A DNA stretch of 63,856 bases, filler included, from Reclinomonas americana ATCC 50394 (taxonomy: Eukaryota), in NCBI GenBank assembly GCA_048213135.1. It is 10 parts of 7 records of this genome, joined end to end, with 100 filler letters (N's around TTAATTAATTAA, not from the genome) between each part and the next. Parts side by side here need not be neighbours in the genome. Positions count along the whole stretch, not along the records: positions 1 to 4,287 come from PS015932.1; positions 4,388 to 18,241 come from PS015933.1; positions 18,342 to 26,782 come from PS015934.1; positions 26,883 to 29,164 come from PS015935.1; positions 29,265 to 37,048 come from PS015935.1; positions 37,149 to 46,367 come from PS015935.1; positions 46,468 to 58,388 come from PS015936.1; positions 58,489 to 60,330 come from PS015937.1; 2 more parts are not named here. One strand, written 5' to 3'. This document shows, piece after piece, positions 1 through 60,300 of the stretch. Numbering within the stretch: position 1 is the stretch's first letter; each line of letters opens with the position of its first letter. The position numbers and the translations under genes were made by a program. The notes under the pieces were generated by a model. The model made no database searches, was not told the origin of the DNA, and worked only from the letters and a program-made list of their open reading frames with translations.

Positions 1-1762
1 CGTCACGTCCTTTCTACTCCTCTCACTTCTCGCTCGTTCACTCTCTCTCTCTCTCTCGCACACACAACCTCTCCGTCTTGTCACTCTCTTGCACTTCCTC
101 TTCCCTAATCTGCTCTCTCTCTCCTTCCCTGCTCTCTCTCTCTTTCTCTTCTTCTCAAAACGCAACATTCAATCACTCCACTGCCATTCGGCCACACCAA
201 CTCCACGTGCGCCGGCACCACCTGCGCGCTCACGTCGAGCAGCCGCGACGGTGCACCCTCCAAATCCACCTGGCAGATGCAGCGCAAAATGCCGAGCTCC
301 GACGGGTTGATCTCCACCGCCACTGTCGTCTCGCTGTTGGCCTTGACGACGCCAGTCGGCGGCTTGATGCGCACCGGCAAGTCATCGTCGTACAGAAAGG
401 TGAAACGGCCGTCGCGTGAGCCGCGGTTGCGAATGCACACTTCGCGACGGGCCATCTGCTCGGGTACGACCACCCCGAAATCGGTGACGGTGTCCAACTC
501 GTAGTGCGGGGCGGGCATGGTGCCGGAGAGTGGGATCTCCACCTGGCCCTCCTCGACTTGCACGAGGAGGCGGTCGTACATGTCTTGTTCCTCGGTGCAT
601 TTGAATTCGAGGGTGATGCGCTCCTCCATGCCTGTGGGGGATGAGGGGGAAGGGGGGATGAGGGGAAAGGGGGGAAGGGAAAGGGGAGAAGGGAGAAGGG
701 AAAGGGGAGAAGGGAGAAGGGAAGAAAGGGAGAATGGCAAGAGGGAAAGAGGGGGAAGGGAGAAGGAGACAAATCGAGAGAGAGGATGTACTGAGGATAG
801 AAAGAAGCACGAGAAGAAAATAGAGAGTGAAATGGATATGGGAGAAGGGCAAGAGGGAGAAGGGAAGAGGGGGAGACGGAGAGGAATGAGACGAGTAATA
901 AGAGAGAGAGATAGAGGGAGAAGGGAAACGGAAATGGAGAAGGAGAGGGCCTGGATCGACGGTACATGGATTGGGTGAGAATCGAGGGAGCAGTAAGAGG
1001 AGAGGAGAGACGAGAGGAAAGAAAAGGAAGAGAGAGAATCGTGGCAGCGTACACACCTGGAGCAATGATCTTGCTGGCCGTTCCCTTCACCGAAAAGTAG
1101 CGAGTGATTGGGTTGAAGAGGCGGTAGCGCAGCGGCTTGCCGCTGATGTTCTGCACCAGTAGAGTGGTCGAGTAGGTCCTGCCGACTTCCACGTCTTGGA
1201 ACTGAGGAGGCGGAGAAGAGCAGGTGAGCAATGAGCACAAAAGTAGAAGGTGCGTGTGTGAGAGATGTGCATGCAGCGAATGCGACAGTCGGTGACAAAA
1301 GTTAAGTCTGCGTTCACGGCATTCTCGTACAAACAGTGAGAAAGAGCAAGAGTACGTGTGTGAGAGAGAAACAAAAGAATGAGAAAGAAAAGAGAGAGAG
1401 AGAAGAAGGTCGGGAGAACAACTGCTGGGCCTCTTCCCCTCAGGTGCATCGTGGCATTGTGAGTGAAGGAGAGACTGAGTGAGAGGCAGCGTCAAATCAA
1501 GGACGCCTGTCCCTTGAACTAGTGCGTTAGTGTGGACAGCGATTGCAGAGGTGGCGTGAGTGAAGAGAGAGAAAGCTCAAGAGAACGACTGCTCGGGGTT
1601 AGGGGGGTGCGATGCAGAGGGCTCTCTTTCCCTCAGAGGTGCAACGTGGCATGGTGGGTGAGGGAGAGACTGAGTTAGAGGCAGCGTCAAAACAATGACG
1701 CCTCAACCTTGAACGAGTGCGTTGGTGCGGACAAAAATGCAGAGGTGGTGTGAGCGTGTGAG

Positions 1763-1823
<61 letters not shown>

Positions 1824-12600: not shown

Positions 12601-15600
12601 GTGCTAGCGAGTTCGGATTCCAGCTGCGTTCGTTGCGATGCTGGATAAGAAGGCATGGATAAATCAGCAGCAGAAAGAGGGCAGGACGAGAGCTTAGCGA
12701 GTAGGCAGAGACACTAACCTGCTTCTTTAAGGTCACGTCGAGTGCTCGCAAGTTCCGCTTCCAGCTGCGCTCGTTGTGATGCTGGAGAAGAAGTGGCAAG
12801 GTGAGAAGCAGCAGGAAGGGAGTGCTTGACGAGTAAGTAGAAACACTGACCTGCTTCCGCCAGATCACGGCGAGTGCTGGCGAGTTCTGATTCCAGCTGA
12901 GCTCGTTGTGTTGCTGGAGAAGTCAACAGGGCGATAAGCAGCGGGAAGAGAGACATGCTCGAGAGTTCGACGAGTGTACAGAAACACTGACCAGCTTCCG
13001 GCAGGCCGCGGCGAGTACTGGCAAGTTCAGCTTCCAGCTGGGCTCGTTGTGATGCTGAGTGTGTGAAACAGCGGGGGCGGAGTTGAGGAGGGAAAGGCAA
13101 TCACGAGAGCAAGACAGAAGGACTCAGCCTCTCGCTCTCTCTTTCTCTCTCCCTCTCACGAACACACACTTGTGCAGCGCACACGAGATACAAACTTCCC
13201 GGCGTTACGCAACTGGCCTCCTCCAGCTGCCGCCCCGTGTCCTCGAGCGAGCGCTTCAACGACGAAATCTGTGCATCTGCATCGAGAGAAAATCATCAAC
13301 CACAGTAACCACCAACAAGAGATTCAAGTGCGTTCGACGCACCGCGCTCCTGCAGGCGATGACTGGCGCTGTCCAGCTCCGACTGGATGTGGGAACTTGC
13401 GGCCTCTGCAAAGAGCAAAGATGAGTCAACATGCTTGCTTGGGCGTCAACGCAGCAATTGAAACCGCACCAGCAGTCTGAACGTCGTGTTGCGACTCATT
13501 GAGTGCCACCACTACACGAGAGTGAGCACAACTACACAGATGGAGAAAAAGTGCACATGGAGATTAGCAAACCATCCTGAGCATGCTGCAGTCTCAACTG
13601 CCCGACTTCTGTGCTCAACACATCCAGCGCCTGCTTCGCCTCCTCATCTGTGCGCCGAGTGAGTTGGGATTAAAACACGGGTGCCACCGCAACACGGTAC
13701 GCAACAAAGTTGGCTTTGGTGAGCAAGCTCCTTTTGCATGACACTGATTTCTTGCGATGAGGTGGCCAGCTGCTCACGCAGGCGACCGAGCTCGGCCTCT
13801 GCGGCAGAGAGCAAACGAGGTGAGATGGAGTGAAGAAAAGAGAAGGGAGGAGAGGGGAGAGGAGAGGAGAGGAGAGACGAGGGGAAGGGGAGGACAGAGT
13901 AAAAAAGAGATTCGAAAACAAGGACAGAAGAGAAACAGAGTTTGGAGTGCAAGACGCAATGCTTGTGGCAGAAAAACAGGCGAGTACAAGAGCGTGAGTA
14001 TGACACTCATGAATAACCAACAGCTACTCTTGTGTGCAAACTACAAGCGTACACAGACGTGCACTACAAGCGTGCACTGTGCCGTGCATTACAAGCGTGC
14101 ACTGTGCCGTGCATTACAAGCGTGCACTGTGACGTGCACTACAAGCGTGCACTGTGACGTGCACAAACAAGCGTGCACTGTGCCGTGCACTACAAGCGTG
14201 CACTGTGCCGTGCACTACAAGCGTGCACTGTGCCGTGCACTACAAGCGTGCACTGTGCCGTGCACTACAAGCGTGCACTGTGCCATGCACTACAAACGTG
14301 CACTGTCGTGCCAAGATATGCCATTGCCATCTCTTTCCCTCCATCGTACCTTTCTCGCGTTCATCAAACTGCGACAGCTCCAATGCACCCTTCAATTCCG
14401 CCACTTCCTGCCGAAGTGCAGTGTTGTCGCGCTCTGTCACACGACGCATGAGAGAGCTTTTAGGTCGTCCGGATGTGAGCAACATAGCGCACCTCTGCTC
14501 GTAATGTCCTCGATCATCTCCGTCAGTTGCACCACAACATTGTCGCGGTGCATCTCTGTCGCACGAGTGGCAGGGAGTGAGAGCATGCAGATGAAGATCA
14601 GTATCCTCTAAGAAGCGCAACTCGTCTGGGCAATCTCGTTTTCCAGTTTCTGCAACGCGCACATCAGCACTCAAGACTGGAGAGAGATGACAAAAGACAG
14701 CACAGAACGCACAGCAGCATGCTCTCTGACAACAGAAAGTCCTTCCACATCGTGCTGTGCGCGTTCGAGCCGTTGCTCTGCAGCACACAATGAGCGGATC
14801 ATCCACAAACGGAACGAGAAAAAAGCAGAACGCACTCGTGTCCTCCAACTCTGTGAGTGCGTTCTGCAAGTCGTGACACGCGTGTGAGCAATGCGTATGC
14901 AAAAGCGAAAGCCAGAAACGCAAGAATACCTCGAGGCGACTCCTCTCCCGCTCCAACTCAGCTGCTTGTTCGCGCAGAGTCTCCAGTTCCCTGTCTGTGA
15001 TGACAGATTGTCGGTACAAGTTGCCGTAAGAAGCTAAATTCATCATGGGGAAACGCAACTCGCAGCACCTAAATCCACCTCCAATTGCTACAAACGCGCA
15101 CAATTCCAACAAACCATGTGAGCAGCTACTTTGCACTCATCGAACACTGCCTAATACATCAATCACCTGCGCACGGGCTTGCACAGCCAGCAGAGCCTCG
15201 GCATCACGGCGCATTGTGGACAGCTGTTGCTCCAGCTCACGACACAACTGGCGAGTGCGCGTAAGCAACGCAGATGGAAACGCAGAGGTAGAAGGCATGC
15301 TTCACAAACCTGCCGTGTGGCGTTGACCTCTTCGCGTGCCAGCGTCTGCTGGCTGCTCAACGACTCCACATCGACTCGCGAATCCGCGAGAGCCGCGCGC
15401 AGCGAATCATTCGTCGCACGCGCAGAGCTGAGTTCCTCCTCCAGACGGAGTCGCTCTGCTGCCGTCTGCTCCAGCACTTGCTGCAGCTGTGACGTGATCT
15501 GCGCAACGAATGAGCGGCGGAGCACGATGCCAAGCAGGTACTATCTTCCTTACCGTCACCACATGCTGCTGCTCGCTTTCCAACTGCTTCTGCGCGGTGA

Positions 15601-16133
15601 TGCGCGACGACGTCTCCTGCAGCGCCAGAGTGAAGTTAAAGGGCATGCATACGCAAGTGGCCACTGCGTGTTTGTATCCCTCACCACTTCAATGCGATTG
15701 CGATGACTGGCGAGCTGATTGTTCTTCTCCACCAATTGTGCTTGCAGATCGGCAATCTGCTGATGCAGTGCGTCGACCTCGGCACGCAGCGTGGATACTG
15801 TCGATTCGAGTTCCTGCGACGCGGAGATGAGTGACAGCAGGAAACACATAAACTCACTCTCCATGTCAGTATAACACTCGCTCTCTTTGCTCCCACACCA
15901 ACAGACACTCATGCATTCAGGTCAAGGCGACACCTGTCACACCTTTCGTCATCTCTCTTCCCTTGCCATTTCTCTATCTCGCACACACTCACTCACACAA
16001 TGGATCAGTCTCGCCTAAATCGTTGCCTCGAGTGACCTTTGTCACACATTCTCTCCCCTTGCTATTTCTCTCTCAAACACACACACTCACGAAGTCAGCC
16101 AGTACTTGTCACGCCTTCTCATTCTCTCCTTCC

Positions 16134-16179
<46 letters not shown>

Positions 16180-19100
16180 TCTCACGCTTTCAGTTGCTGC
16201 CGCCAGTATCGTCGCCTATGGCATTTGTCACAGCTTCTCTTCTCCTTCCCCTGCTGGCTCTCTCTCTCTCACGCACACACACACACACGCACTCACTCAC
16301 ACATTCAGTCAGCGTTGCCTGAATCGTCGCCAAAGTGACGTAAGTCACGCATTCTCTTTTTCTTTCCCTCAGTCTCTCTCTTTTCTCAAAACCACCACCT
16401 TCGCACCTGCACACTTGCCGTCGCGGTGGCCAGGTGTGCCTCGGTGTTCGTCAGTGTCTCAGAGCGTGCCCTTGCATCTTCTTCGAGTTGCTGTATTGTG
16501 GAATTGCTCGCCTACACCAGAGAACACTGATGAGAAACAAGATCAAAGGACGACGAACTGATCAACAAACCTCACAGGCAGACAGTGAACGCAGCAGATC
16601 GCGCTGCAGCGATTCGACATGCGTTTCCAGTGTGGCGGCGCGTGTTTCGGTGTTGGCAGTGCGAATGGCGTAAATCTGCCGGGGTTATTCAGTCATTGCA
16701 CTCCGCCCAACACCGCCAGCACCACAACACTCAACTTTAAATGATTCCAATTCGCGCTTCCACACCTCCAGCTCGCCACGGTACTGCTCACGTAGCTCCC
16801 ATTGTTCGTGCTTGGCCACTCTGTGTTTGGCAACGGTTAGCCTCGCCACATATCGTGCACACCACCATCATGCTCATGAAATGACCTGTCTGCCTCCCGC
16901 AATGCGTCTTCCAGTTGTTCACGGTGCTGCAGCTCCAGGTCCTTGGTGATGCGCTCACGCGTCTGCTCGATTTCGCGCATCAGCCGCTCCTCGTATTTGC
17001 TGCGCCAGCATAGCGAGAGTCAGGCAGAGCAGGGAGGAAGGAGGGAAAGGTGTAGTGATGAGGGAAGAGGGAAAGAGGGGAAGAGGGGAGGAGGGAGGAG
17101 GGAAGAGGGAAAGAAGATGAAGGGGGGAGGGAAAGAAGATGAAGGGAGGAGCGAAGAGGGAAGGAGGAAAGAAAATGGAGGGAAAGGTAAAGAGGCGAAG
17201 AGGGAAAGAGGGAAAGAGGGATAGAGGGGAAGAGGGGAAAAGGGGAAGAGGGGAAGAGGGACGAGGGAAGAGGGAATAGGGGGAGATGAAAGAAGAAGCA
17301 GGGAGGAGGAGGACCAGGAAGACGACAAGGATGAGGACCAGGAAGACGAAGAAAGAGGATGATGGACAGGAGGATTAAGATAAAGAGGTATAGGTACATA
17401 GAAGATGAAGAGGAATGAGACAAATCAGATATGACGGCAAGATCACTGCACATGGCTGGGAGAAAGAAGAAAGGTGAACATGGAAAACGTGGAGGACGAC
17501 GCAACGCTCTTGCGTTTTCGAGCAGCTGAATCTTGTCGCGTTCAAGCTCGTCTTCCAGTGATCTGCTCACGCGCGCGTGAGTACAATGGCAGATAGACAC
17601 TGTTTTCTCCTCTCACATCACACGCAACTCTCGCGTGCGCCGAATGACATCATCGCGCTCGCGAGTGAGCTCCTCGGTGAATCGCCTGTGGAACCCCAAG
17701 ACGTGAATGCAATGTGGACGATGAGACAGACACGCAGGACGACGAAACATTTGCAGTGCTTCCACCGAGCGATCGTGCTCTCGCTTGAAATTGGCCGTCA
17801 GTTGTCTGCATTGCACGAAACACAGGTGGTGAGAGGGGGGGATAACAAAGAGCGTGCGCGTGACTGGGACGTACTTTTCCAATGCACTCAATGCCTCTTG
17901 CTTGCCGCGCTCGTGTTCCCGGAAGAGTGCTCTATGCACTCGCTTGTGAGTAATAAGAAGCACATAAGCAAACATTCACAAGCAGCGCAACTCTTGCTGT
18001 GCGGTCAGCGCCCTTTGCAGCTTCAGCTCGGCAGTGCTGTGCACCTCCCTGCACGGCAGTGTCAGGCACAGCTTTGGCAAGAACACCAGCGTCACACTCA
18101 CCGCTCTCGCCGAGACACCTCGCGCTCCATTTCCTCGCGCCAAGCATTCTCCATGTTGCTGTGGAGAGCGCGGTGTGAGGAGAGAAATATATCGTACGAT
18201 AAACACGAGAAGGCATGCTGTCGTTGAAAGTAGCAGAGAGANNNNNNNNNNNNNNNNNNNNNNNNNNNNNNNNNNNNNNNNNNNNTTAATTAATTAANNN
18301 NNNNNNNNNNNNNNNNNNNNNNNNNNNNNNNNNNNNNNNNNAGAGAGAGAGAGAGAACGAGACAAGAGGAAGGAAAACAAAGAGTCAAGTGGTCTTGAAG
18401 TTGACTGACAGGAATCGCGTCGCCATTATGTGGTAGAACGCAGAAGACGACAGAGCAAAGGGAAGGATAACACAGAGTCAAGCAGTCTTGTAATTGACTG
18501 ACAGGAAACGCATCACCACGATGCGGTAGAACGCAGAAGACGACAGAGCAAATGAAAGGAAAACACAGAGTCAAGTAGTCTTGTAATTGACTGACAGGAA
18601 ACGCATCGCCACGATGTGGTAGGACGCAGAAGACGACTGAGCACGAGGAACGAAAAACATAGAGTATACACTTTCACTGTTGCTGCGACGAGAGGAGAAT
18701 ACGTCATGCCAAGACAGACAACAGAACGGATGTGTAAGGACAACGAAGAGGGAGAACGAAACAAGAGGAGACGGACTGAATGAATCGCGACGAGCGCGTT
18801 GTAAGACAGGAAGAAAGTACGCTTGGCACAGGAGAGTGGTAGAATGCAGAAAAAACAAGCACAAACAACAAGATAAAGAGGGCGAAGAAGCTGTGGAGCA
18901 ACACACAAACAGAAGGCACAAGACACTCTCGAAACAGCAACATACCGCAGGTATTCCGCATCAAACTGCACTGGCGGCGGGGACGGCGACCTCTCACCAT
19001 TTCTGCACATTGTCAATCGTCAGAGCACACTCGTTCATGCAGAAAAACCAATCAGCAACCCAACCTCGGCGACGACGCAGCCGCGACCGATTCAACCACA

Positions 19101-23336: not shown

Positions 23337-23393
<57 letters not shown>

Positions 23394-23477: not shown

Positions 23478-24936
23478 CGTGTGACGAACGGCGAGCGCAG
23501 CGTGGACTTTTACACGCGCATTCTCGGCATGACGCTGGTGGTGCGTCGCCGCGCGCGCAAGTCTTGCGCCTCCTTGAATTCATTTTTCGCCTTGCAGGAG
23601 AAACTCGACTTTGAGGCCGCTCGCTTCTCGCTGTACTTTGTGGCGTACTGCGACCCGGCCGAGATTCCCGCCGACGATGCCGAGCGCAAGAAGTGGTTCC
23701 ACTGGCGACCGGGTGCGCTGGAGCTGACCTACAACTGGGATGAGGAGGTGAGTAGAGAGGGAAAGGCAGAAGGAGTTCTCTTCCTTCTTTTATTCTTTCC
23801 CTGCTGCGCTGATTACGAAGATGGGTGCGAAGACAAGAGCACGCTCCCATTGCTCTCTCTCTATCTCGCTCTCTTTAGCCTGCACAGCTGCCGCGTGTCA
23901 ATGTTGTGTTTTCTCTTCTCTTTCTCTCTCGCTCTCTTTTGTTCACCGTTCTCTACACATTCTCGCCAACTTTCTGTTCGAGTTGCGCTCTCTTTACTGT
24001 TGCTCTTCTTTGGCCTTTTCATTCCCATTCTCGCGCTCGTGGTCTCTTTAGATGTCACTGTTGTCTTCACTTCTCCTTCTCTCTGCCAGACTCGCTTACC
24101 ACTGTGTGGGTTGCGCTCTTGTTCTTCTCGTGCTCACATTTGCCTTCTCACTTACTTTCTCGCGTTGCGGTCTCACTCACTCCTCATTTCGATGTTTTTC
24201 CTCATTCCTCTCCACCTCTCTCCATCAATGTAACAGGTGTACCACAACGGCAACGAGCCGGGCAACCGCGGCTTCGGGTGCGTGTCTTGTTCTCGCCTCA
24301 CGCTCCCTTTTCGTGCTTACTCACCCATGCCTCGCTCGCAGTCACATTGGTATGTAGCTGCTGTCCACCCTCTCGCAGCACATTTACTCAGCCGCCCCTG
24401 TCTTTCCGTCTTGCACACATCAGGCATCAAAGTCCCTGGTATGATACTCGTGCGTCTCTCTCCTTCCTACTTTGTGTGAACTCATTCCGTGCTCGTATTT
24501 GCAGATGTGAACAAGGCGGTGCGCTCCACCGTTGCCCCTCATTCTCACTGTCTCTCTCTCACATCGCTCCTGCATGCAGTGCGAGCGCTTCGAGGCCCTC
24601 GGCGTGCAGTTCCAGAAGCGCCCGGAGGAAGGTTTGTGAAGCTAGCCATAATTTGTTGTCGTCAGCCGCTAACCCACCTTGTGCAGGTCGCATGAAGCAC
24701 CTGGCTTTCGTTGCGTGCACGCTCTGCGCAATCCCACCTCCCCTGCGTCACTCACATCACACGTGTCCCGCTCACAGATCAAGGACCCCGATGGTGAGTC
24801 ACGCACATGTGACCAACGTGAACTCTCCTTGTCACTCACCTCACGCATCGCACAGGCTACTGGATCGAGAGTTGTGCCCCTCCATCTCCTTACTCACACC
24901 ATAATCACGCTAACCCCTCTCATCACAGTCTTCTAA
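23478..24936 (+). CDS. GLO1: Glyoxalase I (lactoylglutathione lyase); 5' end lost in the gap
   Basis: Exons 23478-23540, 23598-23747, 24237-24277, 24342-24349, 24424-24438, 24505-24518, 24580-24631, 24687-24709, 24778-24793, 24856-24870 and 24929-24936. They give RVTNGERSVDFYTRILGMTL...FSLYFVAY...LELTYNW...YHNGN...[53 protein letters not shown]. Confidence 0.95.
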
Positions 24937-26375: not shown

Positions 26376-26412
<37 letters not shown>

Positions 26413-29400: not shown

Positions 29401-31205
29401 GAGCGATAGACAGGGCGAGAGACGGGGTGAGAGAGAGAGGGAGGACGAAAGAAGAAATTACGATGCAGCGACAGCAGGGAAAGAGAAGTGATTGATCGTT
29501 GCTTTCTTTGTTGCAGCATGGCCTCTTTTCTCTTCCATCCTTCCACTCTGTTTGCATGTGTTTCTGTCTCCTGCCATTGTTGTTCCTTCTGATATCAAAT
29601 TTTTTGCCTCTGGTTCTCTGTCTCATTATCTCTTTCTCTTTCTCTTTCTCTCTTTTCTTTCTCTTTCTCTCTTCTCTTCTCTCTCTCTCTCGCTCTCTCC
29701 CTCCCTCTTTCTTTCTCTTTCTCTCCTTCTCTCTTTCTCTTCTTCTCTCTTTCTCTTCTTTTCTCTTTCTCCTCTTCTCTCTTTCTCTCCTTCTCTTTCT
29801 CTCTTCTCTCCTTCTCTTCTCTCTTCTCTCTTCTCTCTCTACCTTCCTCNNNNNNNNNNNNNNNNNNNNCTCTCTTCTTCTTCTTCTCTCTCTCTCTCTC
29901 TCTCTCTTCTCTTCTCTCTTCTCTCCTTCTCTTTCTCTCTTTCTCTCCTTCTCTCTCAACCCTTTCCCTCGCCCTATTCTTTCCTGCCTCATTCTCCTCC
30001 GTCCACCTCTCATCCTTCTCTCCACTCACAGTTCCCGACGAAGTCCCGCCCCCACCAAAGATCGTGGAGTACAAGTACGACGAATCCAGCGTGTACGCCG
30101 TGCTTCTCGAGCCGGCTTTCAACGGCACCGATATTCTCGGTTTCGGCATGCGCTACACCACAGACTTCGAAATGGGCGACAACAACAAGTCTCGCTACTT
30201 CCCGGACTTTGACTCGCCCGGTCAGACGACAAACATGTTCAAGTTCGACATTGACGTGCCAAAGGGCACGGTGAGTGGCATGTTCCTGCGTAAGTGCCTC
30301 ACATTTGTCTCTCACGTTCTATTCTTTATTTGTTGCAGCGATTCTTTGTGCAAGGTCGCGTGCGCAATGCCGCCGGCTGGTCGGGATGGAGCTGGCCCGA
30401 GTCGTCGGTGCGCGACATCCCTCCGGATCCGCCCTCACTGATTGTGGAGCGCTTGCACGACGAGAAAGTCCGTATCGCCTACGTGCCGCCCAAGGTCAAC
30501 CACGGCAGCCCGCTGACCGGACGCTGGATGCTGTACATGAGCCCCGACGGCGACATGGACGACATGCCGGGTCAGATCATGAAGGAAACCAATATTATGG
30601 TGGGCGGTCTGGCGGCCAACATGACGCGGTACTTTTGCGCCGCGGCCGAGAATCGCAGTGGGTTCGGTCAAAAGTCGGAGTTGTACAAAGTCAGTTGCGT
30701 GGAATGGTAGAGAGAAGGGAGGGAAGAGAGGGAAGAGGGGGAAGAGGGGGAAGAGAGGGAAGAGAGGGAAGAGAGGGAAGGGAGGGAGGAGAGGAAGGAG
30801 GAAGGAGGAGGAGGAGGAGGGAAGAGAGAAAGAGGGAGAAGAGAGGGAAGAGAGAAAGAGGAGAAGAGAGGAAGAGACAAAGAGGGAGAAGAGAGGGAAG
30901 AGAGGGAAGAGGGGGAAGAGAGGGAAGAGAGCGAAGAGAGGGAAGAAAGGGAATGAGGGAGTGTGAGAGAGAGATAGAGGGAGTGAATGAGTGTGAGATT
31001 GAGTTCGTCTGTGAGGAGAGAGAGAGAGAGAGGGACCAGCCCCTTTCTTGTTCTCTCTGTCACTCATTCTTGCAATGCGTTGAATTGTGTGTCACGCCCT
31101 CTCCTATTCCAAGCCTGCCTTTTTCTGTCTCTCGTCGGATCAGTGGTTGAACGTCAGTTTCTCTGTTCATTACCTCGTCACTTTCTTACTTTTGTGCTCT
31201 CTCTC

Positions 31206-31282
<77 letters not shown>

Positions 31283-31855
31283 GATTGTGAGGGTGCGTCG
31301 CTCTCTCTCTCTCTCTCTCTCTCTCTGTGTTTCTCTCACTGTCTCTCAGTGTGGTCGCCGTCCTTTCCCTTCATCTCCCTCTCCATCTATCCCTCCCTTT
31401 TCCTTTCCCCCCTTTCCCTCTACCCCTCGCTGACAATTCCCGCACAGCCACCAACACACCACCGGAGGTGCCGGAGTGGCCCAAGATCGAGCTGCTGAGC
31501 CACAACTCCGTGCGAGTGACCATTCCGAAGTCCACCGACAACTTTGGCACCAAGATCACCGGCTACCGTGTGCAATGGTCAGAGGACAATCGCTTCAAAG
31601 CCAAGGCCACGCAAGTGACAAAAGTGCAGGCGTCGCCGGTGTTTGTGCTGGAGAACTTGACGCCGGGCGTGCCGATTTTCATTCGTGGCGCCAACTGCAA
31701 CAAGGCCGGCTGCAGTGGATGGGGCGATGTGGAGACTGTGGGTTCGTTGGTCGCACGCACACGCACACGCACACATGAGGAGAGACACATCCAGGGCACT
31801 CTTCACAGCTCGCATCACTCTGGCACACACACGCACACAAACACACGCACGCACA

Positions 31856-31891
<36 letters not shown>

Positions 31892-35410: not shown

Positions 35411-35441
<31 letters not shown>

Positions 35442-35729
35442 CTCTTCAGTTGCGAGCATGCAGCCTCGGAGTGAGAGAAAGAGAGAGCCTTGTGTTCGTG
35501 TTATGTTCTTCCTGTCTGTTTCTCTCTCTCTCGCACGCTCTCTCTCTCTCTCTCTCCTTCTCTCCCTCCCTCCTCTGCTTCTTCTCTTTAGTTGCGAGCG
35601 TGGAGCCTTGATTGTGTCTCACAGAGAGAGCTCTTCTCTTTCTCTCTCTCTCTCGCTATCTCCCTCTCTCTCTCTCTCATTCTTCGCAGCCTTATATTCC
35701 TGCTCCTCCTCACTAATGGAGACGCAACC

Positions 35730-35761
<32 letters not shown>

Positions 35762-38700
35762 GGAGGAGGTAATGTAGGAGGGAGAAGGAGAGGAGGGGAA
35801 GAGACGAAGGCATGATTCACGGCATTATCTCCTCTCATTTCAGTTGTCTCGAGGAGAGGGGGGAGAGAGAGTGAGTGAGTGAGTGAGTGTGTGTGAGAGA
35901 GAGGGGCAGGGAGACTTGCTCTTGCTTTCATCTCTCCTCTTCCTTGTCTCTGAGTTGTGAGCGTGGAGCCTTGATTGTGTCTCGCAGAGAGAGCTCTTCT
36001 GCTCACGTTGCGTCTTCTCTCTCTGTCTCTCTCACTCTCTCGCCTCCTTCCCTCTTCAGTTGTCAGCATTGATTCGTGACAGCGCCGCAGAGTGCGAGTA
36101 TCGTGACTTGTCTTGCCATTCTTTCTCTCCCTCTCTGTCACACTCTCTTCGCGGTCCATGTTCTGTCATTCCTCATCACCCCTCCCTCTCCCTTCTGCAG
36201 TTTCGGTCGCCCTGGCGCGGAGAGCGCCTTTTACAGCCAGGAACCCGTCAGCGAAGTCATCTTCGCCACCAACCAGGTCTGACTGTCCTCGCGAGAACGC
36301 CCTCACTTCTCGTGCTCCTTGCTGACCTCCCACCACGTACAGGGCGCCCTCATCACGTACTCCGACTCGGCGCTGCTCTTTCGTCTGTGGGAGATTCATT
36401 CACAGGAGAACTTGTGGGCCGCCGTGGCCCCGGAGCGGTGCGCCTTGATATTCCGCTCTCCCCTTTCAGTGACGTGAGCTCATGCCCACACAGTGCCACC
36501 TGCCTGCACCACCGATGCATGAGCTCCTTCATCTACGTTGGGTTTGAGAGTGGAGCGGTGCGCGCCCTCACCCTCGCGCAGGGCATGTGGGCAGTGCGTG
36601 TCTTGGAGCCGGCCGAGTCGTTTGAGTTGCGTACCGTCGCAGGGGTCTCGACTCATGATTGCTGAGTTTTTTTGTGTGAATCTTCTCGCCGACTATCTTA
36701 CTATCACATACACTTCCCCATTTCTTCCCGCTGCAAGTCACTCTTCTTTCTCGTTCTCCTCTCGTCGGTCTCATATTCTCTCTCCCTCTCTCTCATTATT
36801 GCGCTCGTTTATTTTGCTTGCAGTTCGACACATGTGTCCTTTCTCTGTGTATTCTGTTCTCATCTTTCGTTCTCTGTTCACCTTCCCTCCCTCATCCTCC
36901 TCTGTCTTCTTCTTTTTCTCCTTCTTTTCCATTTTCTCTTTCTTTTCCTCCTCCTTTTCCATTTCCGTTTCCTCTTCCGCCTCATCCTCCGCTTTCTTCT
37001 TCTTCTTCTTCTTCTTCTTCTCCTTCTTCTTCTTCTCCTCCTCCTCCTNNNNNNNNNNNNNNNNNNNNNNNNNNNNNNNNNNNNNNNNNNNNTTAATTAA
37101 TTAANNNNNNNNNNNNNNNNNNNNNNNNNNNNNNNNNNNNNNNNNNNNTCACTTGCTGCTCGTGGCCTACGCCTTTGGCCTGGTGGCACTGCATGACCTC
37201 AATGCGCAGAGTGTGCTGCAGCGTTTCGGACCGTTTCAGGTGGGCCGCGCACTCCTCGACATCCTGCGCACCTTGCTCACTCACTCGCGCTTCAACGACA
37301 GCGAGTGCGCGACGTCAAAGTGCACCCGAGTGGCAAGCGCATGTCGATTGTGTGCGGCGCCAGCGACTTGCTTGTGGTCTCGATGCCGGAGGGGGAGACT
37401 ATCGGCACTCTGTCTCTCGCTCCCACCGTCTCCGCCGTCGATGCCGTCACCTCTGCCGCCGCCGCCGCGGCGAATCAGGGTGGCAGTGCCGAGGTCGCTG
37501 CTCCTGTGGATTCCGGCTGGGACTCGCCAATGCGTGCACGACTCGTGTGGGCGTTGCGTTTTCCCCCTCATCACTTGTTTTCTCTCTCTGTACGAACGCC
37601 CTCACTCGTCGCCAACACGCAGAGATCCCAAGTGCTTGCTGGTACACTCTCCGTCGCTCGGCGTTCTCAGTGTGCTGTGTGGCGAAGGCAAGAAGTTTGC
37701 GGCTCCCACGTTGCTGCTGCCGCCCTCTGCAGCGCCGCGGCGCGTGTCGCTGTTGCAACGCACGCCGTGGGGTTAGTGCTCTCCACCGCCGGTGGATACT
37801 TTGCTTCCCTCACTTCATCCTCGCTGCGTAGATGCGGTCAAGGAGGGCAAGGTGTTTGGGTTTCTCGCGCTGTGCGACACCGGGCAAGTGCTGATGCAAC
37901 TGTGGGACAAGAAGCGGTAAGTTGTTGAAGTGGGAGAAGTGATCACGCAGTGTGTTGGCGTGTCGTACTTGCCTGCTTACATATCCCTCCTCTAATTCTC
38001 TCTCACTCTCTCTGAGTTCATCTTTCAGTACTCGCTATCTACCACCACTTCCACAACTCGTTTGCCCGTTTCTTTCCCTCTCTCTTACTCTCGCCCCCCT
38101 TCCCCTTCCTTCCCCTTCACTCAGATCCTCCTCCACCACCCGCCCACTTCCCACCTTCCACCGCACCGTGGGCGACGACGTGGCCCTCGGCACCTTCACC
38201 GCGCTATCCTCGTTCGACTTGCCGCTGCCGGAGTCGCCGGTGGACGGCGGCCAAGACACGCCCTCCTATTTTGGTGCGCTCTTTGTGACGGGCAAGTCGC
38301 CGGCGTCACGCAACTGCGTTTCGTGTCACATTCTGCGACGTGACTCGGGTGCCGCCATTCCTCTGTGGAGGTATCTGTCGTGGTGTGTTGCTGAAATGTT
38401 TATGCCATCGCTCACTTTTACCCCTTATTTTCAGAGCTCCCTCAAACACCGACCATCAGGCCATCACGGCGCTGCTGTCGAGTCGCATATCGAGTTGTCC
38501 CGACGGTCCGCCTCCGCAACCCGGCGACGGCGAGAGTGACGGCGATGCGAGTCGACGCACTGCATCCGTGTGCTCGATGCTGCTCGTGTTTTACGGGCTG
38601 CAGGATGGCACCGTCGGCTGCATGGATGTGGGGTGCGCATTGGCAGTGCAGCACATGTACCTTGCTGACTGCCACTGACGAGCTTGTGCTGCAGGTCGGC

Positions 38701-51300: not shown

Positions 51301-54300
51301 CCAGGTGGTCAGTGGCGTGCTATCTGTGCCCCGGTCGGCGCAGCAGTCGTGGTCGACGTTGCGACTCTTTGAGAGTGACCTCGAACACGACGTGTCGGAT
51401 GATCGCGTGTTTCTGTTTGAGATGATTCGCGGTACGGGTCGAGGCGGTGAATTCTTCGACGCTGTGCAGCGGGCGGCATCCAGCAGTCGCACTGGAGCGG
51501 CGTCGGTGTTGAAGAACGAGCCAATAGGTTGGTTCTGCGCATTGAGAAGGAAGACTTGGCTTTTGACACTCTCTCTTTGCGCAGTGGACGAATGTGTACG
51601 CACTCTCTTTGCGTGCTTTGTCAAGCACAGTGGTCTGTTGCCGCAATGTCGTCGGTATCCTCCGACTGCCGACGCTGCTGTTATCGAGTGCTTTACGAGA
51701 GCGGACAAGGTGCGTGATGCAGTCTGGTTTTCTGTGACCCAAGTAACTTATCCTTTCCTTTCCCAATTGCACAGCTCCGACGGACTCTGCTGCAACAGTT
51801 GCGTGACGCAGAGACGTGGCGATCCAGTGTTCTGTCGTACTCACGCTGGTGTTGCGGTGCAGGCGCCAGGTGGTGTGTCACCGCCTCCAGTGCACGCCGA
51901 ATCAGGCGCTGCATGTCGTGTGCGAGTCATTCCTGGACCGCATGCTTCTTGTCCTCGACATTCGGCTGCATCCTTCGCTGGCCGCGAGCAAGAGACCATC
52001 CACTGCTTCATCGGTGCGGTTGATTCGGGGAAAGTGGAGGGAAATGACGAGATGTCTGACAAGGTCTCCCTCTGTAGTTGGCAGCTTCGGGTGGTCTCTT
52101 TGTGGGATTGGTGACGCTGGTGGCCAAGGCGGCTCTGCTGACTCCGCGACGCCAGGTTTCGTGCATTCTTTCTGTGACTGTGTTGACGCCACTCGCAAGC
52201 TCTTCCTCTTCCTCTTCTCACTGTTTGTATGACAGTCTGCGTCTGTGTCGCATCTCTCTGTATTCTTCACTGCATCCGTTGTCTGCTGTCATTCCTTCTT
52301 CAGCTCATCCTCTCCGCGTCTGTCAATTCGTCGTTTCTGTGCGCGTTCTCCTCCCCTGCACCTTTGCTGTTTGCTCCTCCGCCTTCTGATCCGCGATCTC
52401 TTCCATCGCCGCCACCGTCGCCTATGCACATTCGCTTTCTGCTCCTTGCCTTCAAGATCTTCACTTCCTTGCCCCCGTATGCTTCATTTGTGCTTACTCC
52501 CCTCGGCCCTCATCCCATCCGCTTTTCGCTCTCCTTTTTCGCGTTTTATTTTATCCTCATCATTTTTCCTCCACCTCGTCCTCCATCTCTACTGCCGCCG
52601 CTTCCTGTCTTCTATTACCGTCCTCTTCTTCTTACCTCTTCTCTTTTTCCCTCTTCTTTGCCCTCTTCCCATTTACTTCCACTCTGTCCTCAATCCAGGC
52701 CGGTCCAAGCAGCACCCTGCAGCAACTGTTGCACAGTAACGCTGAATCTCTGCGCGAGCAACTGCGAGTGGAGATCTTTGAGTTTGTGTGCGACGATGCG
52801 CAGAACGTCGCTGTTATCCGCGACGATATGGAGCGGCGTGAGCGGCTGATTCGCGATCGTCTCTTTGTGTTGCGCACGACGTTGCCGTTCCTGCGAGCGT
52901 GCTCTTCTCTGTCACTCCCCGACGAGGCGATGAAGCCGACTGCACTGTTCGGCATGTGGTTGAGCCGTGCGCTGGCTGGCACGCACTACATGGCTGGCGA
53001 ACCGGTGAGACGCGCAGACTGTATGTTCTCTCTCTTTCTCTTCTGATTCCATCTCATTTGTTTCCGCTACCTGCGCAGCGCGTATCGGAGGCCGTCGCTG
53101 GCCAGCTCCAGCAGCGATTTCACGAATTGGTGCAAGAGTTGTACTTGATGTGGCCCGAGTCGCCGTTGAGCAGCTTGCTGCATGAGATGCTGTTGCGTGG
53201 CGGTGTGTCAGAGAGAGAAACAGGGAGAATCTGCGCTTCCTTACAGACTGTGATCACAGCGCACGCGCTTCCGATCGCCGAGCGGCTGGTGAGGCTCCTC
53301 CTCCAATGCTGCATCCTTGCCAGGCCGATTTGTTGTGCGTGCGCTGGCGGGCTGCGGATCTGCCGTTTCTTGCGAAGCTGCTTGGCGACGAACAGACCGG
53401 CTGGCGACGCCTCGCCGCTGTCCAGCCGCCGTGGCAACAGCAGCTCCTTCGCCAGTTGGTGGATAGTGGTGCACGAGTACCGTCATGGGCACTTGGTTGC
53501 GTTTGTTGTGCATGATTGAGAAAGTCTTTCCTTTGTGACTCACGCCTTGTCCGCGGCAGACGCCCTGCGAGGCGTACAGTGCCTCGGACTGGCGGTGCTT
53601 GTTCACTTGGCAGAGTCTGTACTGTCGGTGCTTCATGTGCGTCGATGCCGGCATCCACAAGACCAGCAGGCGGCCATGGCGCTTCTTGGGAGGCTCGCCG
53701 ACATTTGTGTCTCGGCGCCGCACGCGACAGTTGATGATCCATTCGTTTCCTTTTCGGTGTGTTGCCGTGATTGTGTGTGTACAAGCGTCATGTTGACACT
53801 CACTCACGCTTGCGCATGCAGTCGTCCCTCTTGTGGTCAATGGCACACTTTGCGTTCCAACCAATCGAGTCGGCGGCGCATGGCGACAGTGTCAGTCCGC
53901 CAGCCCTCACACTGTCGTCGCCTCCCCGCGCTCTCAACTTTCGTACCTTCCTTTTTGGCTCCCTGGCGTCCATGCCTCACGAAGGTTCATATCTGTGTGC
54001 GTATCGAAAGGTAGATGTGCCCTCTGACAGGATGTGTGTTTGTAGAGGTCGTCCGCCACCTGTGGCAGAGCGAGGCAGTGATTCGCTTGATGCATCCGAT
54101 TCGGCTCGGGTTGGAGCGGTGGGGTGCGAGGGTGGAGGATGCGGTGTGTCGATTTGCGGTGTTGCAGCGGTTGTTGCCGTATGGTGATCGTTGCGTGCCA
54201 CACGAGAGAGGGAGGAACAAGGGAAAGGAGGGGAGGGATAAGGGAAAGGAAGGGTGGGATAAGGGAAAGGAGGGGAGGGGAGGGAGAAGGGGAGGGAGGA

Positions 54301-57300
54301 AGAGAGGAAGGGGAGGGGAGGGGAACAGGAAGAGCAGGTACGGCTGAGAAATAGGGACAGAGAATGAGAGAGTGAGAGAGTAGAATAGGAACAGGACTGG
54401 AGGGGAGGGAAGAGAACAGGAAAGCAGGGGAGGGAGGAGGGCACGGAATGCAGACACAATTGAGAGATAATGAGAGAGAGAAAGTGAGAGAGTAGAGGAG
54501 AGAAGGAGCAGAGTGAATAGGATAAGTATGGGGCTAGCTGAAGGGAAGGAAGTGGGGGTGAAGAGCGGACAGAGAGGACGTGCTACCTGTCAGCGTGTGT
54601 TGATGTGTTTGTTGTGTGGGAGAAGAAAGAGACGTGACATTAATTTAGGTTAGCAAGTTGTATGTTTGCGGAATGGTAAGCAGCTGACGTTTAAGAAAAG
54701 AGCAGGGTGGCTGGTAGACAAAGGCAGGGTGAGTTGATATTGAATAACGAACAGCGTGGACCAATTGTGTGAGAAGGCAACTGACTGTGTGAGTGTGAGA
54801 GTGACAGAGGTAATGGAGGGGATGGGACAGAAGGGAAGGAGACATAAAGTGATGGTGGGAGAGAAGAACAAGATGTAGAGGTTGTGATTGTGCGTGTAAG
54901 AGTGAGAGAGAGTGTGTGGAAGGGAAGAGGGAGATAGGGATACAAGGGCAGGGAGAGAGATGTCAGAGAATTGAAGGATGGGCGAACAAGATCAACAATG
55001 GTGCTGTAGAGTGCGAGGGGAGGAAGAGCGAGCAGCAAGCCGCAGCAGAGACACATGTCGATGACTCTTGTTCACCCAATGTTATTGCACAGGTCCCCAA
55101 GTCGTCGCAGCTCTCGGAACTCAGTCTGTCGTCTACGCTCTCCTGCAATCGATCGACCGCGGTAGCTACGTCGATATGCTGGCTCGCGCTGCTCGTCAGG
55201 CCGACAATGTGTACATGGGCGATGTCGGCGGCGATGATGATGATCCATGTTGCGTCGCCGCTGATTGGAATCATCGAGGCTGCAGTCTGCTGATCTTCTG
55301 ATGCATTTGTTGCAGATCGCACCAACGACGAGCTGCTTATGCGCAGCCTGTGCTCTGCGCGCCTGCTGCGCTCACTGGCCACGCTGGAGCCGTGGAGACG
55401 CGAGGTTTGTCATTTGGTACTCATTCATTGGCAACAACGAGCATTGATTCACTTGCTATCCAACAAGGTGTGCGCCGCTGTGCTGGAGGCTGTGGAGACG
55501 ACGCGCGTGGAGAGTGCGTTGCGCAGCATTGCCAGTCGTCCCGACGGCAGTGACGCAGCGTCGATGCGCACCATTGCCGCGCTCTCTGCTGTGCTGGTGG
55601 CGTTTGGCGGTGAGGTGCCGTGGTGGCATGTGGGCGCGTGGGTGCAGCATGTGGAGTCCGGCATGCGGGGTGTACTGTTGGCGTTCGACTGGCCACATGG
55701 TGCGCGGGTGGTGTGGGCGGTGTCGCAGGAGGTGCGACGGGTGCCGCTGGCGCAGTTGAAGTTGGCGGAGGAGGAGGTGCGGCAAAGGGGAAGGGGGTGA
55801 AGGGGGAAGGGATGGGAGGGGGAGGGGAGAAAGAGGACAACAGGAGGAAAGGGTGAACTGGAACGAGTAGGCGGTATCAAAGGATTGATTGAGGAAGAAG
55901 AGAGTCAGCATGGGAACAAGTAGCAATGGAGAGGGGGGATACTGAATTGTAGTCGGAATGAGTGGCGCGAGTGCTAGAATGAGTGATATTGAATGGTCAG
56001 AATTTGGCAAGGGGAGAGAAGGTTCGAGTGAATGCCAACAAAAAACAGTTAGATGTGGGGTAGGATATTCATGAGGTCTCTGATGTGCAGCATCTTGCGA
56101 GAGTTTTGGTGGAATGGATCGAGAGAGGTGGCTGGCTGAGTAGAAAGCCAGAGCACCCCTGAGATGTGAACATCTCGGTCAACAGAGACAGCGAGACAAA
56201 TGATGCGGTAAACGCACGCACACACGCACACACACACGCACAGAGAGTGAGAGAGAGAGAGAGAACAGTGCATGGCTGAGTAGCACTCCTGAGATGTGTG
56301 AACATCTCGATGAACAGAGACAGCGAGACAAACTGAACAAGTGATGCGGTAAACGCACACACACACATACACACACGCGCACAGAGAGTGAGAGAGAGAG
56401 AACAGCGCATGTAGTGCGCAGACATCTCGATTGACATTGACAGAAAAGTCAGGATTGAGCTAATACAGAAGAGCGAAGCACTTTGAGGTGCGCAGATGTT
56501 TCGATTGACAGTGACAGAAAAGATAGAACTGAGCAAGTGATGCGCTTATCAGAGAGAAGGAGAGAAGCGCTTGAGGTACGCATAGAGGCTGAATAGCGAG
56601 TGATATGGTTAAGAGAAGGAAAACAATCAGCGATGCACCCCAACTGGTAGAGAGAGCGAGAGAAAGAGAGAGAGAGCGAGAAGCACTCAAGTTGCGCATT
56701 CATCCCTATTAACAGCCATCGCAAGATAGAATCGAGTGGGTGGTTGAGAGACGAAGGGTTGCACTCTTGACATGCATGCGCCCTCGATGAAGATCTTTTG
56801 AACAATGCATTGCAAGAGATATGAAGCCCTCCATCTTGCATCTGATCTGTCGATCGTTCCTGACACTCTACGCTCTTGGCAGGCGGCCAGCGCACTGGAG
56901 GATCTCGGCGAAGTCCGTGNNNNNNNNNNNNNNNNNNNNNNNNNNNNNNNNNNNNNNNNNNNNNNNNNNNNNNNNNNNNNNNNNNNNNNNNNNNNNNNNN
57001 NNNNNNNNNNNNNNNNNNNNNNNNNNNNNNNNNNNNNNNNNNNNNNNNNNNNNNNNNNNNNNNNNNNNNNNNNNNNNNNNNNNNNNNNNNNNNNNNNNNN
57101 NNNNNNNNNNNNNNNNNNNNNNNNNNNNNNNNNNNNNNNNNNNNNNNNNNNNNNNNNNNNNNNNNNNNNNNNNNNNNNNNNNNNNNNNNNNNNNNNNNNN
57201 NNNNNNNNNNNNNNNNNNNNNNNNNNNNNNNNNNNNNNNNNNNNNNNNNNNNNNNNNNNNNNNNNNNNNNNNNNNNNNNNNNNNNNNNNNNNNNNNNNNN

Positions 57301-60300
57301 NNNNNNNNNNNNNNNNNNNNNNNNNNNNNNNNNNNNNNNNNNNNNNNNNNNNNNNNNNNNNNNNNNNNNNNNNNNNNNNNNNNNNNNNNNNNNNNNNNNN
57401 NNNNNNNNNNNNNNNNNNNNNNNNNNNNNNNNNNNNNNNNNNNNNNNNNNNNNNNNNNNNNNNNNNNNNNNNNNNNNNNNNNNNNNNNNNNNNNNNNNNN
57501 NNNNNNNNNNNNNNNNNNNNNNNNNNNNNNNNNNNNNNNNNNNNNNNNNNNNNNNNNNNNNNNNNNNNNNNNNNNNNNNNNNNNNNNNNNNNNNNNNNNN
57601 NNNNNNNNNNNNNNNNNNNNNNNNNNNNNNNNNNNNNNNNNNNNNNNNNNNNNNNNNNNNNNNNNNNNNNNNNNNNNNNNNNNNNNNNNNNNNNNNNNNN
57701 NNNNNNNNNNNNNNNNNNNNNNNNNNNNNNNNNNNNNNNNNNNNNNNNNNNNNNNNNNNNNNNNNNNNNNNNNNNNNNNNNNNNNNNNNNNNNNNNNNNN
57801 NNNNNNNNNNNNNNNNNNNNNNNNNNNNNNNNNNNNNNNNNNNNNNNNNNNNNNNNNNNNNNNNNNNNNNNNNNNNNNNNNNNNNNNNNNNNNNNNNNNN
57901 NNNNNNGTGTTTCGGGTACTTGTACCACCCAGCGCGCACCGTGTCCACCTCGACCTCGGGCGCCACCAGTTGACCACGTCGACGCTCCGCCGCCAGCACG
58001 GGCCGGAAAGACATGCCACCGGCCTGCCCACCGGCCGGACTGGCCGTGACGCGACACCGTTGCAACAACTTGCCGAGCGCCATGCCCTCCAAGAACGATG
58101 CCGAGCCGGCCAGTGTCGTTTGCTGACGTGAAGCGAGTCGTACGAGAGCAGCGAGCGGCGGGACAACTGTCGGTAAAGAAGCAAGGTGAGTAACTGCGAT
58201 TGATGAACAGGGAATCTCAGCGATGCACGGACCACTGCGGCCATGCGATCCCTCCTGCGTAGCCTGCGTCAGCAGCCGAATGCTGCACGCAACCAAATGG
58301 CGCACGCGGAGGGCGAGTCGTGCAACCACCGCCGGCGACAAGCTGTCCATCCAGTTGATAATCAAGCAGCAGGTCGACAGCAGTGACANNNNNNNNNNNN
58401 NNNNNNNNNNNNNNNNNNNNNNNNNNNNNNNNTTAATTAATTAANNNNNNNNNNNNNNNNNNNNNNNNNNNNNNNNNNNNNNNNNNNNGAGAGTGGCATT
58501 CCGTGTACGCTCGAGGTTTGCGATGCAGTGAGGACGCGATTTTCTTTTTCCGTTGGTGCTGATTTCGTTGGTGTGCTGGTAGATTGACGAGGGCGACGAG
58601 GGCGACGGCGACAGCAGTGACGACGAGAGGCCGGGCAACGAGGCATGTGTGTGCACGCGTCGGTGTTAGCGTGGTGTGTTGTTTATGAGAGTGTGTTGCA
58701 CAGGATGCGGCGTCGGCCGTGAGCGGAGGAGATGAGGAAGAGGATGCTGGCGATGATGGCGATGACGACGATGGGGACGACGGCGAGGGGCGATGGATGG
58801 ACGATCGTGTGGATGGTGATGGGTTGTTCGAGGAGCAAGATGCATCGAGGGGGCGCAATCGTGGCCGCAACAAAGTGCAGGCGACTGGCGCGGATACCCT
58901 CCGCAGCGTCGGTGACGAGTTGAACGCGTCTCAGCAGTGGTCGTTGTTGGTGGTGCGTTGTGGAGTCAAGGGGATCGGTCCTTGTGTGCATCTCTCACTC
59001 GTATGCTGCGCTTGCAGTCAAGCTGGCAAGGGGCGCGAAAAGCCGATCGGTCTTTCGAGCTTGTCAGCGTCGACCCCGCGATTCCACGCCTGGTGTCGGC
59101 CTCTCATGAGCTGCGCAGCTTGGCGCCCACCGATAGTTGCGTGCACAGAGGGGGAAAGGAAGGAGCGAGATGGGGGAAAGGAAGGCACGCACACAACGAT
59201 CAAGGGTTGAGGGTGGAGGAGAGACGCTGATCACACGCACGCACCATTCAAGGGTTGAGGGTGGAGAGGGGACAATGATCAGACGCACGCACCGATCAAG
59301 GGTTGAGGGTGGAGGGAGCACTGCTTGTGCACACACACCGATCAAGGGTCAAGGGGTGGAGAGAGACACTGTACGCATACACATTGATCAAGGGTCGAGG
59401 GGTGGAGAGAGACACTGATTGCACACAAACACTGATCAAGGGTTGAGGGTGGACGAGAGACACTGATTGCAGATGCTCGGTCAAGGGTTGAGGGGTGGAG
59501 AGAGACACTGATCACACGCACACACCGATCAAGGGTTGAGGGTGGAGGAGAGACACTGATCACACGCACACACCGATCAAGGGTCAAGGGGTGGGGAGAG
59601 ACACTGATCGCACGCACTCACCGATCAAGGGTCAAGGGGTGGAGAAGAGACAGTGATCACACACGCAGCGGTCAAGGGTTAAGGTGGAGTGACACTGATC
59701 ACACACGCATCGGTCAAGGGCTGAGGGTGGAGAGAGACACTGATTGCACGCACACACCGATCAAGGGTTGAGGGTGGAGGATAGACACTGATCACACGCA
59801 CACCGATCAATGGTCAAGGGTGGAGGGAGACACTGATTGCACACGCATCGGTCAAGGGTTGAGGCGTGGAGAGGGAGACACTGGTGACACACAGACACCG
59901 TTCAAGGGTTGAGGGTGGAGAAGAGACAGTGATCCTACGCACACACCGTTCAAGGGTTGAGGGGTGGAGAGAGACACTGATTGCACGCACACACCAAGAG
60001 GGATGCAGTGTCTTGAGGATCAGTATTTTTCATTCTTGAATGAATCTGACAAAAATGGTGTGGCTCAGGTGGTGATTTCTTCGACGCGTTGATCACGGCT
60101 CGTGCTCGTGCTGCGATTCCGTCGGTGGTGATGCTGCTGGATGATCCAGCGAGTTTGGTGTCCACTCCAGCCATGTTGTCGCAAGTGAGCGCCGCCTTGT
60201 CGGAGGAGCCCGACACGCCGGAAGGTCTGTGGGCTGTGCATGGTGGCTAATTTTTCTTTGAGCTGGTGTTAACTTGGTTTGTAGATTTTGTCGTGCTCGC

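Follow-up and report, generated by a model that had tools for sequence, protein, structure and literature searches.

Our analysis concerns a 63,856-nucleotide stretch of DNA from Reclinomonas americana ATCC 50394 (NCBI GenBank assembly GCA_048213135.1), hereafter the window, and the signals that mark the 5' ends of its introns. We are confident that GTTGCG(T/C) is a genuine second class of 5' splice site (donor) here, beside a loose class found mainly after exons that end in G. The introns that carry it are ordinary GT-AG (U2-type) introns at their 3' ends and special at their 5' ends. The fuller explanation, in which a genuine U2-type second donor class serves exon ends other than G and is read out of register, has in our view an even chance of being correct. 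A first-pass annotation of the window had listed 23 GTTGCG sites, 19 of them as frame-consistent and four as candidates; all 23 do carry GTTGCG on the strand assigned to them, followed by T at 19 and by C at four. Throughout, a slash between bases marks the exon-intron boundary, -1 is the last base of the exon and +1 the first base of the intron.

Donors anchored in ARL13B and GLO1

The two donors proposed earlier in the ARL13B gene, at 4995 and 5927, are fixed exactly to the residue by the solved ARL13B chain 4m9q_A, to which the exons align without gaps (5di3_B yields identical ranges). Residues 3-43 of exon 2 correspond to chain residues 30-69, with the exon ending at chain residue 71; residues 2-37 of exon 3 correspond to 73-108, the full exon covering 72-109; and residue 1 of exon 4 corresponds to 111, residue 110 being the codon split by intron 3. 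These boundaries (71/72 and 109/110/111) therefore place the donors at 4995, in phase 0, and at 5927, in phase 2. At 5927, the second GT within the motif, five bases downstream, breaks the frame; at 4995 it is in frame only if the acceptor is moved by two bases, which adds one residue relative to the gap-free alignment. The Pfam Arf profile is matched over the gene at positions 12-40 and 37-82, in the exons around intron 1, and then at 82-121. Besides the donor of intron 1 at 4003, a second ordinary G/GTGAGT donor of this gene lies at 7542. The ARL13B introns are as follows, 'optimal parse' referring here and below to the gene parser described in the next section.

4003..4857, + strand: ARL13B intron 1, the ordinary comparison, donor G/GTGAGT; Arf profile 12-40 before and 37-82 after; spliced frame open
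4995..5810, + strand: ARL13B intron 2, donor T/GTTGCGT, acceptor CAG; chain residues 71/72; Arf profile 37-82 before and 82-121 after; in the optimal parse
5927..7245, + strand: ARL13B intron 3, donor T/GTTGCGT, phase 2, with an N gap inside; split codon at residue 110; no other nearby AG in frame

A third anchored site lies in GLO1 (23478-24936, + strand), where the donor at 24710 had been regarded as fixed by homology. It is fixed instead by a stop-free spliced frame that runs to a TAA, the alignment to solved GLO1 chains covering the first two exons only; the C-terminal part of the model we take to resemble the GLO1 family. The gene is strikingly fragmented, with 10 introns (nine of 55-74 nucleotides (nt) and one of 489 nt) and at least 11 exons, among them exons of 8, 14, 15, 15, 16 and 23 nt. 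Eight of its donors are of the G/GT(G/A/T)NG type, and the other two are C/GTTGCGT at 24710 and A/GTTGTGC at 24871.

23541..23597, + strand: ordinary GLO1 intron of 57 nt, donor G/GTGCGT; solved chains align gap-free on either side (residues 30-53 and 53-103)
24710..24777, + strand: GLO1 intron of 68 nt, donor C/GTTGCGT; stop-free 10-intron model; retained in the optimal parse under the full generic penalty
24871..24928, + strand: last GLO1 intron, variant donor A/GTTGTGC; required to reach the in-frame TAA

Taken together, ARL13B and GLO1 provide 14 anchored donors. Ten follow an exon ending in G and none of these is GTTG; four follow another base and all four are GTTG(C/T)G (Fisher p = 0.001). 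CAG closes the intron at each of the 13 anchored acceptors.

Recovery of the motif and the intron census

On the two strands of the window GTTGCG occurs 73 times, against 38.2 +/- 6.6 expected, a count that none of 100 dinucleotide shuffles reached. The next base, +7, is T in 36 copies, C in 20, A in 11 and G in 6. Relative to nine gene territories, set by hand from family matches and coding segments, 52 copies are in sense, 12 in antisense and nine outside, and the sequence past +8 differs at each of the listed sites. In the zones that run from the end of a coding segment to the next in-frame stop, GTTGCG is the most enriched of the GT hexamers (29 copies, 10.4 expected, in 24 of 107 zones). 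Expectation maximisation (EM) with a single motif recovered the ordinary aGg/GTGaG from these 107 zones in 30 of 30 seeds; with two motifs, the solution of highest likelihood consisted of AgG/GTGAg and atT/GTTGCGTGC. Two further approaches were dropped: EM with a genome-wide background, which found a purine-rich coding pattern instead, and a suffix/prefix coding test, whose noise was too high.

The gene parser, based on dynamic programming, combined a favoured G/GTNNG class with an acceptor matrix derived from the 13 anchored acceptors and with codon log-odds learned by self-training after the window had been masked. Self-training on the unmasked sequence was captured by simple repeats and parsing on flat scores alone scattered the donors, and both were abandoned. 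A control scan then gave this favour to all 256 GTNNNN hexamers, one at a time. The parse improved most with GTTGCG, by 45.7 bits, against 22.4 bits for the next hexamer and a mean of 3.8 (standard deviation 5.1), which places it about eight standard deviations out. The parser used the favoured motif at 11 of its 73 sites, and at five places without any favour; T stands at +7 in 11 of these 11 hexamer-chosen sites, compared with 25 of the 62 others (p = 1.7e-4). With a flat donor score as its starting point, two-component Viterbi training arrived at gaG/GTg.Gt (weight 0.59) and g../GTTGCgt (0.41), and three-component training at gaG/GTg.GT (0.54), ..t/GTTGCGT (0.26) and a third component that is probably spurious.

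When the 19 sites of the first-pass list were placed in this framework, 13 proved to be in the optimal parse, three more were near-optimal (a cost of less than 1 bit) and three found no support, at a cost of 8-14 bits. The earlier statement that only two of the 19 have G at -1 is literally right, and those two, 53496 and 11212, are both among the sites that fail the parse. The forced parse was calibrated by its structural score, which counts everything in the parse except the donor score of the site itself. The shortfall of this score from the optimum stayed within 3 bits at 17.5% of 160 random sense GT sites and, among the 52 sense copies of GTTGCG, at 32.7%. Outside ARL13B and GLO1, the listed sites and one additional donor are as follows.

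30694..31447, + strand: intron between fn3-like exons, donor A/GTTGCGT; optimal parse at generic penalty; flanks 52.6 and 49.2 bits
37553..37670, + strand: tomosyn/Lgl-like gene, donor C/GTTGCGT; optimal parse
43309..43730, + strand: tomosyn/Lgl-like gene, donor T/GTTGCGT; optimal parse after training
49918..50063, + strand: large gene without family match, donor T/GTTGCGT; optimal parse
50122..50162, + strand: large gene without family match, donor C/GTTGCGT, acceptor uncertain (41 or 66 nt); optimal parse, with an alternative 66-nt intron
55249..55315, + strand: additional donor beyond the earlier list, T/GTTGCGT, 67 nt; optimal parse at generic penalty; flanks 17.4 and 35.0 bits
12097..13213, - strand: coiled-coil gene, donor A/GTTGCGT at 13213; optimal parse at generic penalty
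13648..13705, - strand: coiled-coil gene, donor T/GTTGCGT at 13705, 58 nt; optimal parse
14556..14621, - strand: coiled-coil gene, donor A/GTTGCGC at 14621, 66 nt; optimal parse after training
14995..15059, - strand: coiled-coil gene, donor A/GTTGCGT at 15059, 65 nt; optimal parse after training
17000..17505, - strand: coiled-coil gene, donor C/GTTGCGT at 17505; optimal parse after training
59136..59142, + strand: listed donor, near-optimal only; forcing costs 0.6 bit; 48-nt tandem array downstream
17622..17628, - strand: listed donor, near-optimal only; forcing costs 0.9 bit
17985..17991, - strand: listed donor, near-optimal only; forcing costs 0.3 bit
53496..53502, + strand: listed donor, unsupported, G at -1; forcing costs 8.1 bits
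11206..11212, - strand: listed donor, unsupported, G at -1; forcing costs 14.3 bits
11398..11404, - strand: listed donor, unsupported; forcing costs 12.1 bits

The intron at 30694..31447 is flanked by two weak fn3 profile matches, one ending before it and the other beginning after it. The acceptor of the intron at 12097..13213 is uncertain because the intron spans a tandem array of a 141-nt unit (12284-13057, 5.6 copies). As for the four candidates, forcing 54190 into the parse costs 2.4 bits, the introns of 166 and 36626 find no end before a gap or the edge of the window, and 45869 adjoins a gap. A donor chosen by the parser at 3504 (- strand) was dropped, as it sits in another tandem array (3168-3705, 138-nt unit, 3.8 copies). 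The array directly downstream of 59136 occupies 59186-59995 and consists of about 17 copies of its 48-nt unit.

For the census, 43 of the parser's 130 introns on both strands were taken out: some ran antisense or fell outside the territories, and those in ARL13B and GLO1 gave way to the 13 anchored introns of these genes. The resulting set numbered 100. Removal of 3504 left 99 modelled sense-strand introns, while the 3'-end comparisons below use the 100 (21 GTTG-class and 79 others). By donor, the 99 divide into 14 GTTGCG, six other GTTG (20 GTTG in total) and 79 others. The window is very intron-dense: its 89 internal exons have a median length of 90 nt (quartiles 58-153), 14 of them being of 30 nt or less, and the median intron measures 80 nt. 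Sarcocystis neurona, whose genome paper (PMC4337577) reports 5.4 exons per gene and a mean intron length of 1.4 kb, was set aside as a source on these grounds. The link between GTTGCG and exon ends other than G, which the first reading of the sequence had pointed out, is borne out: G stands at -1 in 0 of 14 GTTGCG donors, 1 of 6 other GTTG donors and 65 of 79 others (0/14 versus 65/79, p = 2.7e-9). This statistic is in part circular, since the G at -1 was among the things that the mixture had learned in training; the 14 anchored donors alone escape the problem. Seen from the exon side, 33 exon ends lack the final G; 19 are followed by GTTG and one by GT(A/G)AG. The ordinary donors are indeed degenerate, as had been noted for those after G, with G (38), T (20), A (13) or C (8) at +3 and G at +5 in 57 of the 79. 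GTGCGT, which is GTTGCGT minus one T, is among the commonest of them (7/79). In the scheme that we propose, an exon ending in G would be followed by a loose G/GT(G/T/A)NG(T) donor and an exon with another end by the GTTGCG(T/C) class. Gene prediction that relied on one donor matrix would overlook about one in seven donors and produce broken models, for instance of GLO1 with its exons of 8 to 23 nt.

The 3' ends give no sign of a second type of intron. CTCAC leads the 5-mers of the last 60 nt in either class (9 of 21 GTTG-class introns, 32 of 79 others), the motif CTNAY is found in 15 of 21 and 61 of 79, respectively, the pyrimidine fractions are 0.62 and 0.64, and intron lengths do not differ (p = 0.47). 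It is likely that CTCAC represents the branch consensus of the organism and CAG its acceptor consensus. With three sites fixed by the ARL13B chain or the GLO1 frame and 11 more in the optimal parse, the GTTGCG introns behave as U2-type GT-AG introns, and the earlier suggestion of a separate intron class, in so far as it implies 3' signals of its own, is weakened by the likeness of the 3' ends.

The same data bear on the idea of a minor (U12-like) origin, in which these introns would be a modified form of that type and would be excised by a second spliceosome. The GTTGCG introns share with U12-type introns a rigid donor motif on the intron side and the lack of an exon-side consensus, yet they differ in the donor itself, in the branch motif and in the 3' ends. 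A pattern search of the window for the U12-like donor (A/G)TATCCTT and branch TCCTT(A/G)A(C/T) gave scattered matches, none at GTTGCG introns and no coherent donor/branch set, and the two classes do not differ in their branch-like and pyrimidine features; we consider this origin highly improbable. Some algae and other protists harbour introners, which are mobile intron families, and the class might be the relic of one such family, with its own donor, that inserted at any exon position. The extreme intron density and a donor independent of the exon context would fit such an origin. The intron interiors, however, are unrelated: an all-versus-all blastn comparison of the 100 modelled introns returned one match between different introns, of 28 nt and between two introns of the other class, which argues against an introner family, and the sequence past +8 is different at every listed site. 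Even if true, this descent, which we judge improbable, would leave the recognition of the donor unexplained.

Recognition of the GTTGCG donor

How such a donor could be recognized was approached by counting base pairs with U1 small nuclear RNA (snRNA), using a generic standard U1 5' end rather than a sequence from this genome. The mean numbers of pairs are given below.

GTTGCG donors (n = 14): 4.5 in the normal register, 6.5 shifted by one base, 7.0 with the U at +3 bulged
Ordinary donors (n = 79): 6.5 normal, 4.9 shifted, 6.0 bulged
Control GT sites (n = 2,737): 5.55 normal, 4.32 shifted, 5.38 bulged

The GTTGCG donors therefore combine weak pairing in the normal register with better pairing in the shifted or bulged one, given that standard U1 end. 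When the columns of the two donor classes were compared, with column i+1 of the GTTG class (class B) set against column i of the ordinary class (class A), the mean dot product was 0.442, versus 0.349 in register. As the most likely mechanism, we suggest that the usual U1 small nuclear ribonucleoprotein would bind GTTGCG donors out of its normal register, with the U at +3 bulged or the helix slid by one base. In either register, G+4, G+6 and U+7 would take the place of the usual +3, +5 and +6, and the cut site would still be set at the GU by later contacts of the spliceosome. The shifted or bulged pairing put forward in the first-pass annotation is supported in these two respects, the pairing counts and the out-of-register likeness, and falls short in a third, since the C at +5 is not explained by U1. 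We put the probability that a bulged or shifted U1 register reads the GTTGCG class, as the pairing counts suggest, slightly below even.

Parallels exist in human cells. Roca and Krainer in 2009, and Roca and co-workers in 2012, reportedly described atypical human 5' splice sites that U1 reads in shifted or bulged registers. Human sites of this kind are rare and varied. U1 reading of atypical human 5' splice sites in such registers is reportedly also treated by Tan et al. (2016; PMC4856993). The likeness lies in the GT-AG ends, in the poor U1 pairing in the normal register that becomes good when a base is bulged or the helix slid, and in the cut at the GU. The window differs in that one rigid 7-mer accounts for 14 of 99 modelled introns, strictly at exon ends other than G.

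Several observations weigh against the explanation as a whole, in addition to the circularity mentioned above. Some of them concern the models: the codon model is weak and three of the 19 listed sites fail; the best two-motif EM optimum, although of the highest likelihood, came from a single seed out of 20; a strong bonus of +2 in the parse does not discriminate, control hexamers being taken up 4-19 times; and 21 sense copies of GTTGCG sit within modelled introns, eight of them with T at +7, so that the 7-mer alone is not sufficient to make a donor. Others concern U1: C stands at +5 in 15 of 21 cases and A in 1 of 21, while standard U1 pairing would prefer A; T is the commonest base at -1 (10/21), where a shifted helix would favour A; and neither register explains the near absence of strong N/GTGAGT donors after exon ends other than G.

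A different explanation would be that the motif is enriched through codons or repeats and splicing takes place at nearby GT sites. The two tandem arrays hold or adjoin seven of the 73 copies, many copies are not donors, and a strong bonus recruits control hexamers as well. Set against this are the three sites fixed by homology or frame, with no in-frame alternative there, and the first rank of the motif in the 256-way scan; we regard such an artefact as extremely improbable.

The points that concern U1 (C at +5, T at -1 and the near absence of N/GTGAGT) leave room for a dedicated RNA. A variant snRNA, either a second U1 or a U6 with a changed box, might be complementary to the whole of GUUGCGU, giving U2-type donors two recognisers. 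This would account for a motif that is rigid over seven positions, including the C at +5, for which standard U1 and U6 offer no explanation, and for the lack of any exon-side requirement, with GTTG after 19 of the 33 exon ends other than G and an ordinary strong donor after one. However, a search of the window with Rfam gave no match at the gathering score, and none of the 46 weak matches at E-values up to 5 is an snRNA. Moreover, a slip of one base in register makes the motif resemble the ordinary consensus, a likeness for which standard U1 is the simpler account. We consider a variant snRNA unlikely. Quite unlikely in our estimate is the corresponding division into two recognition systems, in which standard U1 would serve G/GT donors and a second small RNA, complementary to all seven bases of GUUGCGU, would permit introns where the exon does not end in G.

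Window content and wider significance

The window is nuclear DNA, with a G+C content of about 51% in 4-kb windows and 4,677 N. Linkers of 100 bases (44 N, a 12-base word with stops in all frames, 44 N) occur at 11 places, for instance at 4288-4387, 18242-18341 and 62312-62411; contigs have therefore been joined artificially, and genes may be broken at the linkers. Pfam or solved structures identified the following genes.

Near the window start, - strand: CFAP65 (Pfam or solved structures)
3.9-7.6 kb, + strand: ARL13B (Pfam and solved structures)
23.5-24.9 kb, + strand: GLO1 (Pfam or solved structures)
Further families (Pfam or solved structures): fn3-like; tomosyn/Lgl-like, with a weak C-terminal synaptobrevin (R-SNARE) match; SBDS-like

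Atlas searches bore out the families, while several genes of the window have no family match. Word-based protein searches with the coiled-coil open reading frame, an ARL13B exon and a CFAP65 exon gave no match, and a HMMER search of the 168-residue exon of the large gene (55294-55797, + strand) against 1.84 billion protein representatives gave a single match, which was spurious and repetitive. Among the repeats, a 440-nt unit is present in 2.7 copies at 46649-47852, each with a similar + strand open reading frame. A coding repeat of 69-72 nt at 44150-44769 (- strand) yields an acidic/basic (D/E-, K/G-rich) repetitive tail, and its reading direction is that of the N-terminal SBDS-like exon near 45.9 kb. 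Long hairpins at 6066-6165, where a CT-repeat arm faces a GA-repeat arm, and at 35636-35768 resemble several miRNA models on either strand, but with scores that fall well short of gathering, and we take these matches as chance.

Ostreococcus is intron-poor and has one uniform donor. The window, in contrast, is very intron-dense and combines a loose main donor with a rigid second one. Searched for by its motif in full texts, such a donor was not found among the matches listed, which contained only primers and unrelated sequences. On shifted base-pairing, the matches listed concerned only human, yeast and nematode splicing. In the portion of an apicomplexan splicing review (PMC6381282) that we consulted, donor consensus is not addressed.

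If borne out by RNA, our observations would point to a natural genome in which a donor lacking both the G at +5 and the G at -1 is routine. Such a genome, if the reading is true, would offer a test bed for how U1, U6 and U5 divide the labour of fixing the 5' cut site. More broadly, the coexistence of a loose and a rigid donor in the window bears on the co-evolution of donor signals and snRNAs in intron-dense genomes.

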